Of a DNA stretch of 64,000 bases, positions 1 through 10,567 are shown piece by piece. The DNA comes from Escherichia coli (GTDB lineage: Bacteria > Pseudomonadota > Gammaproteobacteria > Enterobacterales > Enterobacteriaceae). The stretch lies in NCBI RefSeq assembly GCF_050920415.1, contig NZ_CP169309.1. One strand, written 5' to 3'. How positions within the stretch are numbered: the stretch's first letter is position 1; each line of letters starts with the position of its first letter. The notes below the pieces were generated by a model that was not told the DNA's origin, ran no database searches, and saw only the letters and a list, made by a program, of their open reading frames with translations. The position numbers were made by a program, and so were the translations under genes.

Positions 1-753
1 TAAACCGGCTTCCGTGGTGGTTTGGGGTTTATATTCACACCCAACCCAACCGTTGTAGTCAGAATTTTCAATTACCGTAAAGAGATACTCATAATTAATT
101 TCTCCGGTTCCCGGTTCGCCGCGATGCGGATTATCGGCAATTTGCAGGTGGCCAATTTTATCGGCCCATTGAGTCATAGTGTTGGTTAATTCACCTTCCA
201 TCCGCTGCATATGATAAATGTCATACTGAATTTTCAAATTGCAGCAACCAACATCATCAATCAATTTCAGCGCCTGTTGAGTTCCGGTGAGATAGAAACC
301 AGGAATATCAAAATGGTTAATAGGTTCAATCAGTAATAAAATATCTTCTTTCATCAGCATATTCGCGGCATAACGCAGGTTTTCTACAAGCGTTGCGTGA
401 ATCTGTTCACTGCTGAAACCAGCCGGCGTTTTACCGACCAGACAGTTGATTTTTTTATTACCCAGCGCACGAGCATAACGAATCGCTGCTGCTACGCCAT
501 CCCGAAACTCTTCTTCACGGCCAGGAATACAAGCAATACCGCGCTCCCCCGCCGCCCAGTCACCCGCCGGTAAATTGTGCAGAGTATGTTCGAGTTTATT
601 ACTCGCCAGCACCTGTTTTAATTCTTCAATGTCGTAGTCATAAGGAAACATAAATTCAACGCCGCGAAAACCACACTGCGCTGCTTTCTCAAAACGGGCG
701 AGAAAATCATATTCACCAAATAACATCGATAAATTCGCAGAGAAACGTAACAT
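1..753 (-). CDS. hyi: hydroxypyruvate isomerase, partial (3' end runs off the window start)
   Basis: Minus-strand translation from the ATG at 751-753 reads MLRFSANLSMLFGEYDFLARFEKAAQCGFRGVEF..., matching my recollection of E. coli Hyi; lies immediately downstream of gcl as in the gcl-hyi operon. Confidence 0.85.
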   Translation of the reverse strand, partial: MLRFSANLSMLFGEYDFLARFEKAAQCGFRGVEFMFPYDYDIEELKQVLASNKLEHTLHNLPAGDWAAGERGIACIPGREEEFRDGVAAAIRYARALGNKKINCLVGKTPAGFSSEQIHATLVENLRYAANMLMKEDILLLIEPINHFDIPGFYLTGTQQALKLIDDVGCCNLKIQYDIYHMQRMEGELTNTMTQWADKIGHLQIADNPHRGEPGTGEINYEYLFTVIENSDYNGWVGCEYKPQTTTEAGL

Positions 754-765
754 TATTTATCTCCC

Positions 766-2547
766 TTATTCATAGTGCATGAAGCAGGTTTCAGTCGGTG
801 CATCCACTGCGTTATCGGCGATATCTTCAAATTCCATGACATTATCCAGTTCGCTGCCCATCGAAATATTGGTCACACGTTCGAGAATAACTTCCACAAC
901 TACCGGAACACGGTATTGATTCATTAATGCTTTCGCCTGTTCAAATGCCGGAGCAATATCTTCCGGTTTGAAAACACGAATCGCTTTACAACCTAAACCT
1001 TCCGCTACTTTTACGTGGTCTACGCCGTAACCGTTCACTTCGCTGGAGTTAATATTTTCGAATGCGAGCTGTACGCAGTAATCCATATCAAAGGCGCGTT
1101 GCGACTGACGAATCAGACCCAGATAGGCGTTATTCACCAGCACATGGATGTACGGAATGTTGAACTGTGCGCCAACGGCTAATTCTTCAATCAGGAACTG
1201 GAAGTCGAAGTCACCGGAAATCGCCACCACATTGCGCTCTGGATCAGCGGCACACACGCCCAGCGCTGCCGGAATGGTCCAGCCCAACGGGCCTGCCTGC
1301 CCACAGTTGATCCAGTGGCGGTCTTTAAAGACATGCAGCATTTGTGCCGCAGCGATTTGTGACAGACCAATGGTGGTGACATAACAAACATCGCGACCAA
1401 AGGCTTTGTTCATCTCTTCATACACGCGCTGCGGTTTCACCGGCACATTGTCGAAGTGGGTTTTGCGCAGCAAAGTGCGTTTGCGCTGCTGGCAGTCGGC
1501 GACCCATTCTTTACGACACGGCAGACGACCCGCTTTTTGCATCTCCTGCGCCACTTCAACCAGTAAAGTCAGGGCAGCTTTAGCATCAGAGACAATCCCC
1601 AGATCCGGGCACAGCACGCGGCCAATTTGCGTCGGCTCAATATCGATATGGACGATTTTGCGCCCTTCGGTGTATTTCTCTACCGAACCGGTATGACGAT
1701 TGGCGAAACGGTTACCGATACCAAACACCAGGTCGGACGCCAGCAGCGTTGCGTTACCGTAACGATGCGCGGTTTGCAGACCCACCATCCCGGCCATCAG
1801 TTCATGATCGTCCGGGATACAGCCCCAGCCCATCAGCGTTGGGATCACCGGAACGCTGGTCAGTTCAGCAAACTGTTGTAACAGTGCAGCTGCGTCAGCA
1901 TTGATGACCCCGCCCCCAGCAACAATCACCGGACGTTCAGCCTGGATTAACATTTCGACCGCTTTTTCAATCTGCATACGGCTGGCAGCAGGTTTATAGA
2001 CCGGCAGCGGTTCGTACATGTCAGGATCAAACTCGATTTCCGCCACCTGAACGTCGAACGGTAAATCCACCAGTACCGGACCCGGACGACCAGAACGCAT
2101 CAGGTGAAATGCCTGTTGCAGCACGCGAGGCACCAGCGCCGCTTCACGAACTGTAACCGCCATTTTGCTGACCGGTTTAGCGATAGCTTCGATATCTACG
2201 GCCTGAAAATCTTCTTTATGCAGACGGGCGCGCGGTGCCTGGCCGGTAATGCACAGAATAGGAATGGAATCAGCAGAAGCAGAATAGAGCGCGGTGATCA
2301 TGTCCGTGCCCGCAGGACCGGAAGTCCCCAGACATACGCCGATATTCCCTGCCGTTGCGCGGGTATAACCTTCCGCCATGTGCGAAGCACCTTCCACATG
2401 ACGCGCCAGAATGTGACGAATACCGCCGTGCTTACGCATCGCTGAGTAGAACGGATTGATTGCAGCCCCCGGAACGCCGAAGGCGGTGGTAATACCTTCT
2501 TTCTCCAGCACATACATTGCCGCGTCAACGGCTCTCATTTTTGCCAT
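766..2547 (-). CDS. gcl: glyoxylate carboligase (tartronate-semialdehyde synthase), TPP-dependent
   Basis: ORF track 766..2637; protein from internal start [34 protein letters not shown] gives the 593-aa length I recall for Gcl; start trimmed to 2547. Confidence 0.92.
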
Positions 2548-2567: not shown

Positions 2568-2584
2568 TTGGAAAAATTTTCCAA
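2568..2584. promoter_or_regulatory. putative AllR operator upstream of gcl (palindrome TTGGAAAAATTTTCCAA)
   Basis: Perfect 17-bp palindrome seen directly in sequence about 20 bp upstream of the gcl start; a near-identical palindrome is in the allS-allA intergenic region. Confidence 0.6.
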
Positions 2585-2598
2585 CTTTCAAATTTTGT

Positions 2599-2624
2599 CA
2601 AAAAAACCCGCTCCGCAGAGCGGG
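2599..2624 (-). terminator. intrinsic terminator downstream of allR
   Basis: GC stem CCCGCTC/GAGCGGG followed on the minus strand by a run of 7 T, just after the allR stop codon. Confidence 0.65.
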
Positions 2625-2636
2625 ATGCGACAGACA

Positions 2637-3452
2637 CTATGGATGTGCTTTCAGTCCCAACGCCGTGCTGATATCGCGGGCGGTGTCTCTGACCAGCTCA
2701 CCCTGACTGACAAAACGATCTTCTGTCAGTCTTGATGAAGGCCCGGAGATGGAGATAGCGGCAACAACGCTACCTACATCATCGTAAATTGCTGAAGCTA
2801 TGCAATTCAGACCTACAACATGCTCTTCTTTATCTACGGTATAGCCCAGTTCACGCGCTTGTTCCAGGTCCTTCAGCAAGGTGGGCATATCCACAAGCGT
2901 AGTTGGCGTAAACTGCTGCAAACCGGTTTGCAGAATGATGCTCATCAACTCCTCTTCCGCCAGCGGATAAAGCAGCGCTTTGCCCGCACCGGAAGCATGC
3001 AGCGGCAGACGACTGCCCAGCGGCGCACACATCCTGACCATCGATTTACACTCTAATTGACCAATTAATACTGCTTCATTGCCGTTACGAATCGCGACAT
3101 TGACCGTTTCGCCGGAAAGTAACATCAGGCGGCGCATAAATGGCCCAGCGACGGAGAGGACATCGCGGTTATGGATGTACGCCGCACCGACGTTAAAGAC
3201 ACCTAATCCTATATGCCACCAGCCTAACTGACTGTCCTGATAGACAAAATCCGCTGCCTGTAAAACCTTCAGCAAGCGAAAGGTCGTGGAGAGCGGCAAA
3301 TCCAGATTGAGAGAAATATCGCTAACCGACGAACTTCCCCCACTTTTTTCCAGATATTGCAGAATCGCAATTCCCCGCTCTAACGCCTGTGCGCCCTTTT
3401 GTGCCACAGGCTCCGCCTGTCCTGGCCTGCCGCGCCGTCTAACTTCCGTCAT
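2637..3452 (-). CDS. allR: IclR-family repressor of the allantoin regulon
   Basis: 271-aa ORF with N-terminal HTH and IclR-type effector domain; position between gcl and allA. Confidence 0.9.
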
Positions 3453-3529
3453 ACCTACGTTAACTCCGACCTACAAGTGAGCATAAACAATGAACAATTA
3501 GTTTATCTTATGCAAGTCGGTTGCAGGCG

Positions 3530-4012
3530 TCACGCAAAACAGAGTTCCTGTTCAGGAATACTTTCAACATCACAGTTGTCACTGCCGCCGCGATCGATGG
3601 TCAGAAAATCGGTGACGCGCTGCCAGGCGAAAAGTGGGTGATGCCAGACGTTACGATGGTAATTCACTCCCTGTTCACCGTTGGTAATAAACGCCCGCAG
3701 GGTTGACAGGTCTGGTTTGTCGTCACCTAACGCCACGACCACCACAAACACTTCCCCTTTCATCGGAATAAAGGCCTGAGTGCCCAGCGGATGACGTTCG
3801 AGTTCGTGAATGGTCAGCGGCAGATTCGCCGGTTGCGCGCGGTTAATGCTGATAAGCGTACGGTCTTGCTCAAGAATCTCAACCAGCGCCAAATCGTGGT
3901 AACGCTCCACCAGGCCATTGTTAATATGGAAAAAATCCCGTTGCTGCGTTTCGATTACGTCGCCATAAGCACTAAAGGCTTCCTGACTTAACGGTAATAC
4001 CTGAAGTTTCAT
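3530..4012 (-). CDS. allA: ureidoglycolate lyase
   Basis: 160-aa [24 protein letters not shown]...; conserved neighbourhood with allR and allS. Confidence 0.88.
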
Positions 4013-4116
4013 CTTTTTGTCCTTGTAACATAATTCCGTTCAACCACCGCCGACCGGTCAATGTGGTTCAATAACAGGCAATCTAAAACCTTAAGAGAAC
4101 AACATCAATACAAATG

Positions 4117-4133
4117 TTGGAATATTTTTCCAA
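4117..4133. promoter_or_regulatory. putative AllR operator in the divergent allA-allS intergenic region (TTGGAATATTTTTCCAA)
   Basis: 17-bp inverted repeat seen in sequence, near-identical to the site upstream of gcl. Confidence 0.6.
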
Positions 4134-4240
4134 AACTAGATTTAGTCCACAAATCACACAGGGTTATCATGTAAAAATACTGATAAATCAGAGGATAAGA
4201 AAATCACGCAACTTGCGGATTTAAAAGGGGATACCTGAAG

Positions 4241-5167
4241 ATGTTCGATCCAGAAACCTTGCGGACTTTCATTGCGGTTGCTGAAACAGGAAGTTTTTCA
4301 AAAGCGGCAGAACGATTATGTAAAACCACGGCGACGATCAGTTATCGCATTAAACTTCTGGAAGAGAATACCGGAGTGGCGCTGTTTTTCCGCACGACTC
4401 GCAGCGTGACGTTGACAGCGGCTGGCGAGCATCTACTTTCTCAGGCCAGAGACTGGCTGAGCTGGCTGGAAAGTATGCCCAGCGAGCTGCAACAGGTGAA
4501 TGATGGCGTGGAACGCCAGGTGAATATTGTCATCAACAACCTGCTCTACAACCCCCAGGCCGTCGCCCAGCTGCTGGCGTGGCTGAATGAACGTTACCCC
4601 TTTACCCAGTTTCACATCTCCCGACAAATCTATATGGGCGTCTGGGACTCGCTATTGTACGAAGGTTTTTCACTGGCTATCGGCGTCACGGGAACCGAGG
4701 CGCTGGCAAATACCTTTAGTCTTGATCCCTTAGGATCGGTGCAATGGCGCTTTGTCATGGCGGCGGATCATCCGCTGGCGAAAGTTGAAGAGCCGCTAAC
4801 AGAAGCGCAGTTGCGGCGCTTTCCGGCGGTTAATATTGAAGACAGCGCCCGCACCTTAACCAAGCGCGTCGCCTGGCGTTTGCCGGGGCAAAAAGAGATT
4901 ATTGTTCCCGATATGGAAACGAAAATCGCCGCCCATCTGGCGGGCGTTGGCATTGGTTTTTTGCCAAAATCACTTTGCCAGTCAATGATCGATAATCAAC
5001 AATTGATCTGCCGGGTAATCCCAACGATGCGCCCTCCTTCGCCATTGAGTCTGGCATGGCGCAAATTTGGCAGCGGCAAAGCGGTAGAAGATATTGTGGC
5101 CTTGTTTACCCAGCGCAGGCCGGAAATCAGCGGATTTTTAGAAATTTTCGGCAACCCACGCAGTTAA
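4241..5167 (+). CDS. allS: LysR-type transcriptional activator of allantoin catabolism
   Basis: 308-aa ORF with N-terminal LysR HTH ([20 protein letters not shown]) and LysR substrate-binding domain; divergent from allA. Confidence 0.88.
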
Positions 5168-5220: not shown

Positions 5221-6330
<1,110 letters not shown>

Positions 6331-8854: not shown

Positions 8855-9805
8855 CTAATATTTATATTCCTCCCACTGAGCACCGTATCGATGCTTTAAC
8901 AGTTTAACTTTAATTTCATCATATGTTTTAACTTTACTACCATCAATCTTAAGGCGAATTTTATTCGAGGTGATATCAACATAATTTCTATTTTCCCCAC
9001 CCGCAGGGAAAAAATCAAACATAAAATTAGACATGTTTTGTTCTTTTTTCATGAGAGCTCCATACTCACACATGTCATTTATATTTTGTATGTATGGAGT
9101 GCCCCCCTGACATGATGGATAATGAAAATCAATTATAGTAAAAAGCGATTTATTGACACTCCTCTGAAAGAACCACTTATTATTTACAATACGATAGGTT
9201 AAAGATTTAAATGTATACCAGTGACTTCCTGGAAGAAAAGAGTAAGCTTCATTAAGATTGACAGTAAATACCTTAGTTTCTCCAGAGGAAAGCTTTACCC
9301 ATTCTGATTTTATATCACAATTATCGCCCATACCAAAATAAAGCTCATCATTGGCATCATCCTCAACAAAATCACATATATTGGTTGCGGAAGGACGGAA
9401 TTTCAGATAGAAACCACTTGTGGATATTAAAAAAGAATCCTCACATAAAGGAGAAAAAAAATAAGGCTCCGATGTGTGTGAGGAGATAGGTAATAATCGT
9501 CTATGAATGAAATTTTCGCTACCCCCCAAATTTGTAAAACTTATTTTTGCTAACACACGAGAGTCAATTTGCTTAACGGTTAATCTAACATCAACATCAA
9601 ACATATTACGATTTGGCAATTTTTCCTCGACTCCGTCAGTGTAATGTGATAACTCAAGTATATTGTCCTCAAGAGTCATCGAATTTAATTTTTGTTCGGA
9701 AACATATTGTGCAATAACCTCATCATTGCAGTATCCATGAAATGAAATAAACATTAGCACTGCAATCTTAACTAATCTCAAAATACTTTTCAATATTGTA
9801 TGCAT
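8855..9805 (-). CDS. putative periplasmic immunity protein (paralogue of 11491..12312) for the HExxH effector
   Basis: N-terminal signal-like segment MHTILKSILRLVKIAVLMFISF; shares SFLPGSHWYTFKSLTYRIVNNKWF with [24 protein letters not shown] of the other immunity candidate; start chosen at the internal Met. Confidence 0.5.
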   Translation of the reverse strand: MHTILKSILRLVKIAVLMFISFHGYCNDEVIAQYVSEQKLNSMTLEDNILELSHYTDGVEEKLPNRNMFDVDVRLTVKQIDSRVLAKISFTNLGGSENFIHRRLLPISSHTSEPYFFSPLCEDSFLISTSGFYLKFRPSATNICDFVEDDANDELYFGMGDNCDIKSEWVKLSSGETKVFTVNLNEAYSFLPGSHWYTFKSLTYRIVNNKWFFQRSVNKSLFTIIDFHYPSCQGGTPYIQNINDMCEYGALMKKEQNMSNFMFDFFPAGGENRNYVDITSNKIRLKIDGSKVKTYDEIKVKLLKHRYGAQWEEYKY

Positions 9806-10567
9806 TATTAAAAACCAGCGGGTCATGTTTTGATTTTAATTCTTTTGCATTGGCAATTTCTCTTTTTTTTCCCAAATCGTTACTGCTTAATCCACCATAA
9901 TACTGTTCTCCATCCCAGATAATAAAAAGGTGAGATAACTCATGGCATAATGTGGAGACTCGAGAGTTTTCTCCCGTTGGATTTTTACATGTGAAATTTT
10001 GTAAGATATCTATAGATATTCTTTCTCGATACTCTAACTTTAAAAGTTCAGCCTTCGACTTATTTTTATACTCACTACTTTGGTATTGGGGCCGATTTAG
10101 ATCTATATGAGTCGTCTGAGCAGCCGGTATACGGGCTGAACCATTGACTAAATTGGTATAATTTTTAAAATTGCCATATATTAGTTGTACATTATCTTGC
10201 GTTCGAGTTTCAATGATCAAGCTATCACAAATCATGATCATTCTGTAAACCCCCTCTTTTATAAAAGTATGTGCGTCAATATTCTTGGTTTGTGGAGTGA
10301 AGTTCCCATTATTATCTGACTTTTGACAAGGAGCATAGTGTTCCATTGTTATAATAGCATCACCTGGTAATCCAAATATATCTTCAAAATTTTTCTGATC
10401 TGCTGGTGTCCATGCTTCCAGATTTTTGCTCTGATATTCAATACTCGCTTTGTTTCTTCCAAAGCAGGCGTTATCATGTTGTAAAATTGATCAGTAACCT
10501 TTGCTTCTTTTTTACATATATTGCCTTTTTGAGTTACCCCTTGTGAACTTCCTTTGTTATTATTCAT
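9768..10567 (-). pseudogene. frameshifted paralogue of the vgrG-linked HExxH effector
   Basis: N-terminal part in ORF 10349..10582 (KEAKVTDQFYNMI versus KEQKITDHFKIMI in the intact copy), remainder in a different frame 9768..10346 carrying STLCHELSH and NNAYNIEKYFEI; frames differ at about 10346-10351. Confidence 0.5.

Follow-up and report, generated by a model that had tools for sequence, protein, structure and literature searches.

The two palindromes that flank allA and allR in the 64,000-nucleotide stretch of Escherichia coli DNA analysed here (the window) are, with a probability of roughly 95%, the operators at which the repressor AllR acts; AllR belongs to the IclR family and its gene lies between them. 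These sites are already known: AllR binding sites have been described in E. coli ahead of gcl and in the allS-allA spacer. The preliminary description of this DNA had reported near-identical 17-bp palindromes at 2568-2584 and 4117-4133 and had taken them to be consistent with control by AllR. Exactly these sequences were found there, and AllR control is borne out by the published motif, KTTGGAAWAWTWTTCCAAC, which fits the sites with 0 or 1 mismatch, by an AllR protein that is the same as that of K-12 at 271 of 271 residues, by orthologous sites in K-12, and by conservation across genera. The features of this part of the window are given in Table 1.

Table 1. Positions of the AllR operators, the genes around them and the elements of the two spacers in the window
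Feature	Position	Strand	Remarks
Site 1, AllR operator of the gcl promoter	2568..2584	n/a	TTGGAAAAATTTTCCAA; perfect 8+1+8 palindrome
Site 2, AllR operator common to the divergent allS and allA promoters	4117..4133	n/a	TTGGAATATTTTTCCAA
hyi (hydroxypyruvate isomerase), cut by the window edge	1..753	minus	open frame, 251 codons, ATG at 753
gcl (glyoxylate carboligase), first gene of the AllR-repressed gcl operon	766..2547	minus	593 aa; TIGR01504, 1280 bits
allR, IclR-family repressor	2637..3452	minus	271 aa; NCBIfam AllR equivalog
allA (ureidoglycolate lyase), AllR-repressed	3530..4012	minus	160 aa; NCBIfam equivalog
allS (LysR-type activator of allD/allF), AllR-repressed	4241..5167	plus	308 aa; NCBIfam AllS equivalog, 640 bits
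selU	5236-6330	plus	
allR intrinsic terminator (also of the 3'-UTR sRNA AllZ)	2607..2624	minus	7-pair stem, 6 G-C pairs, T-run
Candidate allA promoter, TTGATG-17 nt-TAGATT	4080..4108	minus	predicted; both hexamers in cross-genus conserved blocks

The two palindromes and the published AllR motif

Sites 1 and 2 are the same at 15 of 17 positions as written and at 16 of 17 when one of them is reverse-complemented. The arms of site 1 are 8 bp each, TTGGAAAA and TTTTCCAA, with a single base between them, and in site 2 the arms are complementary at 7 of 8 positions with one position mismatched. The spacer that separates allR from gcl is 89 bp long and contains site 1, whose centre is 29 bp upstream of the gcl start codon (ATG). 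Site 2 is about midway in the divergent spacer between allS and allA, at 113 bp from the ATG of allA and 116 bp from that of allS, and the centres of the two operators are 1549 bp apart.

When both strands of the 64-kb window were searched with TTGGAAWWWWWTTCCAA, allowing up to 2 mismatches, sites 1 and 2 were the sole matches. The chance expectation for this pattern is 0.04, and none of 100 dinucleotide-preserving shuffles gave 2 matches. With a tighter pattern and 3 mismatches allowed, all the extra matches in the window carry 3 mismatches. A weight matrix was also built from 40 sites, taken only from genomes outside Escherichia, and on this matrix site 1 scores 35.5 bits and site 2 scores 34.7 bits, the maximum being 38.5. 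The runner-up position in the window scores 15.9 bits, which leaves a gap of 19 bits below sites 1 and 2. No secondary AllR site scoring above 16 bits on the weight matrix was found in the window or in the orthologous loci, and there is no sign of clustered accessory AllR sites at the sensitivity of the matrix used. The runner-up AllR-like sequence, TTGGTATAATTTTTAAA at 10153-10169, has 3 mismatches and overlaps an ORF of 192 aa on the minus strand (9768-10346); its likeness to an AllR site is most likely due to chance.

The motif KTTGGAAWAWTWTTCCAAC is given for AllR in Table 1 of a comparative study of IclR-family regulators, where it is credited to Rintoul et al. 2002 (PMC8222616). It matches site 2 on the minus strand with 0 mismatches and site 1 on either strand with 1 mismatch; with up to 3 mismatches, 0.20 matches would be expected by chance. 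In a 2026 paper, a 37-mer, AAATCTAGTTTTGGAAAAATATTCCAACTTTTGTATT, is given as the AllR recognition site after Rintoul 2002 (PMC13300388). In K-12 this 37-mer is part of the allS-allA spacer, where it surrounds the counterpart of site 2; the window agrees with it at 36 of 37 bases, with one flanking base off and with site 2 as its core. A 2025 paper names the allS-allA control region and the promoter of the gcl operon as places where AllR binds, with glyoxylate as its inducer and allantoin as its corepressor (PMC12535856). The binding of AllR and its release by glyoxylate have been reported for K-12 (PMC12535856, PMC10163214). Thus, the comparison with published AllR sites by which the preliminary description was to be checked agrees with it as far as secondary citations go: the recognition 37-mer spans site 2 and the gcl promoter is named as bound by AllR (PMC13300388, PMC12535856).

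The same Table 1 gives a consensus for IclR, TGGAAATNATTTCCA, that resembles the AllR core (PMC8222616), and the IclR equivalog model gives AllR itself 248 bits. This raises the question of whether the palindromes are targets of IclR, the paralogous glyoxylate-sensing repressor, instead of or besides AllR. The boxes at aceBAK/iclR are likewise A/T-rich palindromes with a TGGAA...TTCCA core that are bound by a paralogous, glyoxylate-responsive repressor of the IclR family (PMC8222616). However, inner arms of AAAA/TTTT versus AAT/ATT separate the window sites from the IclR boxes, and the genomic setting also differs, being the allantoin cluster for the window sites and the glyoxylate shunt for the IclR boxes. 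When sites 1 and 2 were tested for membership against TGGAAATNATTTCCA they had 2 and 3 mismatches, a poorer fit than the 0-1 mismatch to the AllR motif. Moreover, a search of the window with TGGAAATNATTTCCA at 3 mismatches yields 7 matches where 2.9 would be expected; as many as 7 also turn up in 5 of 100 shuffles, which puts this result close to the chance level. The sites flank allR and occur together with it in every genus examined, and they are assigned to AllR in the literature. The IclR box was therefore rejected as the primary explanation, and we regard it as very unlikely that these palindromes serve IclR, whether in place of AllR or alongside it.

The genes around the sites and the comparison with K-12

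AllR, AllA, AllS, and Gcl each score above the curated cut-off of their own NCBIfam equivalog model, AllR with 619 bits against a cut-off of 406, and the effector domain of AllR matches PDB 1tf1 with E=2e-110. None of the genes gcl, allR, allA, and allS has an internal stop, and their names agree with the annotation of identical E. coli records and with the K-12 comparison. The K-12 comparator was the MG1655 region, which stops inside gcl. Besides the identity of AllR, there is 1 difference from K-12 in AllA, 4 in AllS, and 2 in Gcl, the last compared over 528 aa. On the minus strand, hyi follows gcl as on the K-12 map and is presumably the second gene of the gcl operon.

The preliminary description had spoken of the palindromes as lying in the two promoter regions of the allantoin regulon. 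Their placement upstream of gcl and between allA and allS is correct, but these are only the two regions that are controlled by AllR, the allD and allF promoters being controlled by AllS. Similarly, its claim that the wiring of the regulon is intact can be upheld only for the operators together with intact allR, allS, allA, and gcl, because hyi is cut and the remaining cluster, namely the allD and allF operons and the other genes of the gcl operon, is outside the window beyond the left edge.

The K-12 AllR operators (Rintoul et al. 2002 and Hasegawa et al. 2008, as cited in later papers) have the same genes, gene order, spacer lengths, and start-codon offsets as those of the window. The core 17-mer between allS and allA in K-12 is identical to site 2. 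The gcl 17-mer of K-12 has arms identical to those of site 1 and differs only in the central unpaired base (2576), which on the gcl-sense strand is T in the window and A in K-12. Two further differences lie in the flanks: 2 bp downstream of the gcl palindrome (2566) the window reads TTAATAG whereas K-12 reads TAAATAG, and the flank of the allS-allA site is CATTTG in the window and CTTTTG in K-12. The differences between the window and K-12 leave the arms of both operators untouched. Since the T and the A at the centre of the gcl operator are each present in other genera as well, the change at this base is probably neutral for the binding of AllR. Binding of AllR at the window palindromes would be carried over from the K-12 literature, and this is supported by the identical protein and the same operators.

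Over the 2 kb around the sites, the window is 100% identical to one E. coli chromosome, and a match to this part is present in 5404 of 5426 complete E. coli genomes, mostly at 95-99% identity. Between 2400 and 4400 the identity to the window is 99% or more in only 13 of these 5404 E. coli records, and in most it is 97.7-98.6%. A contig of Escherichia whittamii has an AllR that is 100% identical and has the same variant of the gcl operator as the window. The source of the window may be a less common Escherichia lineage. Because nearly all the E. coli genomes are 97.7-98.6% identical here, a comparison within E. coli has low power, and therefore a scan across genera was used.

Conservation of the operators across genera

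A scan of a collection of species-representative genomes with the AllR protein gave 22 true-orthologue loci (66-100% identical) and one distant relative with 28% identity. The orthologues come from Escherichia, Superficieibacter, Klebsiella, Raoultella, Citrobacter, Buttiauxella, Izhakiella, Atlantibacter, and Providencia and from unclassified Enterobacteriaceae assemblies, and the order allS, allA, allR, gcl is kept in every orthologue locus. One contig, CACSKA010000001.1 (L009), is labelled Chryseobacterium sp. 18061 and yet has an enterobacterial allS-allA-allR-gcl cluster with an AllR that is 86% identical. This cluster is nearly the same as that of Citrobacter sp. 18056 (L021), and the isolate labels of the two share a numbered '_Ancestor' format; L009 is probably a mislabelled or contaminated assembly.

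All 20 loci outside the window that have both spacers carry exactly two matches to the motif at up to 1 mismatch, one in each spacer. No other motif match was found in the approximately 12.8 kb of these 20 loci, where the best other position, in one locus, scores 12.3 bits. The gcl site is at the same place in all 21 loci outside the window in which the allR-gcl spacer is covered, and the allS-allA site is kept in every other locus that spans its spacer. In the alignments, identity to the window in the palindrome columns is 97% for the allS-allA spacer and 94% for the allR-gcl spacer, as against 54% and 60%, respectively, for the rest of the spacers. In each spacer the most conserved sliding window of 17 nt is the palindrome to within one base. 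TTGGAA and TTCCAA are nearly invariant and the five central positions vary between A and T. The cross-genus comparison thus confirms the AllR motif, TTGGAA-N5-TTCCAA, by independent computational means.

The distance from the operator to the gcl ATG is 27-30 bp and that to the allA ATG is 110-115 bp in most genera, while the distance to the allS ATG varies between 86 and 116 bp, apart from Providencia, where it is 215 bp. The offsets of the operators are therefore tightly conserved for gcl and allA and not for allS.

The form of this conservation also bears on whether the palindromes work as hairpins of RNA or DNA, such as a structure in the leader of the gcl mRNA, and not as sites where a protein binds. 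Both sites are inverted repeats, and part of site 1 may be transcribed if gcl transcription starts upstream of it. But the predicted hairpins are weak, with -7.1, -5.4, and -4.4 kcal/mol and z-scores of -1.4, -1.35, and -0.74, which is no better than shuffles, and site 2, being between divergent promoters, is probably untranscribed. The sequence of the arms is invariant across genera without compensatory changes, which indicates base-specific recognition by a protein. A hairpin function was rejected because of the weak folding and the conservation of the arms at the level of sequence, and we consider it extremely unlikely. That the sites are functionless palindromes arising by chance is hardly conceivable: short palindromes are common in intergenic DNA, which is itself A/T-rich, but this reading is refuted by the conservation data, the same positions being kept in nine named genera and in the unclassified assemblies while the flanks diverge, and it also runs counter to the 2 matches observed where 0.04 were expected and to the wide gap in score below the two sites.

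The two spacers and the AllR switch

On the coding strand, the gcl spacer consists of the allR terminator hairpin, a T-run, TTGACA, 11 nt that include TTGAAA, the palindrome, an A/T-rich hexamer, GAGG, and the ATG. GAGG is the ribosome-binding site, and the palindrome is located between the -35-like hexamers (TTGACA or TTGAAA) and the Shine-Dalgarno sequence. Under any pairing of -35 and -10 elements the palindrome would therefore be inside the core promoter of gcl, and for this reason steric exclusion of RNA polymerase is the likely mechanism of repression at gcl. The allR terminator is 22 bp upstream of the gcl operator and its T-tail leads into the TTGACA hexamer. The terminator hairpin is retained across genera, with stem bases that differ in some of them. 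The minus strand at 2600-2834 corresponds to the K-12 small RNA AllZ (b4831), which comes from the 3' end of allR and ends 16 nt before the gcl operator; the K-12 annotation puts the end of allZ at the allR terminator. AllZ has been verified by northern blot and may have a promoter of its own (PMC8175672).

In the allS-allA spacer, the -35 hexamer (TTGATG) of the candidate allA promoter starts 8 bp past the operator. This promoter has a consensus score of 8/12, which is under the threshold of the scan. The centre of the palindrome would be about 52 bp upstream of the predicted allA start, unlike the classic position for occlusion, and at allA only the longer recognition sequence quoted above would extend to the -35 hexamer. 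The scan of consensus promoters gave 2 matches where 2.2 were expected, that is, nothing above chance, and the promoter that it placed near gcl was rejected because transcription would begin within the coding sequence. Since the consensus scan did no better than chance, the promoter positions and the overlap of operators with promoters are what we infer.

Besides the operator, two blocks on the allS side of this spacer, at 4147-4151 and 4169-4191, are conserved across genera. The first, CCACA, is about 13 bp away from the palindrome and the second is ATG-AAAAATACT(G/T)ATAAATCA; they are probably elements of the allS promoter or the site of another factor. It has been reported that allS responds to nitrogen limitation too (PMC12535856). 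A RutR site upstream of the gcl operon is mentioned in PMC10163214, with reference to Hasegawa 2008. No match to the RutR box, TTGACCANNTGGTCAA, within 3 mismatches was found near gcl in the window, including 2548-2640.

In the mechanism that we propose, AllR would bind each of the A/T-rich palindromes through the core TTGGAA-N5-TTCCAA. At gcl, where the operator is flanked by the allR terminator and the ribosome-binding site and would be part of the core promoter, bound AllR would block RNA polymerase, and the one operator between the back-to-back promoters of allS and allA would allow both to be repressed. In K-12, AllR is reported to repress allA, allS, and the gcl operon until glyoxylate lifts this repression. 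In the window too, glyoxylate would free the DNA of AllR and allantoin would strengthen the repression. A build-up of glyoxylate would then switch on the gcl operon together with allA and allS, and through the activator AllS also the allD and allF operons.

An extension of this mechanism would be that a tetramer of AllR bridges both operators and loops out allA and allR, thereby coupling the repression of gcl with that of allS and allA and possibly with feedback onto the expression of allR and AllZ. Across genera the two operators do not keep a constant helical phase, but phase matters little at 1.5 kb. We consider such a loop improbable.

With an intact allR and its two operators, the strain keeps the standard AllR switch; this finding is textbook regulation in E. 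coli and has little importance beyond annotation. By this switch, glyoxylate derived from allantoin is used either for carbon and energy through the gcl operon or, via AllS, for nitrogen through the allD and allF operons.
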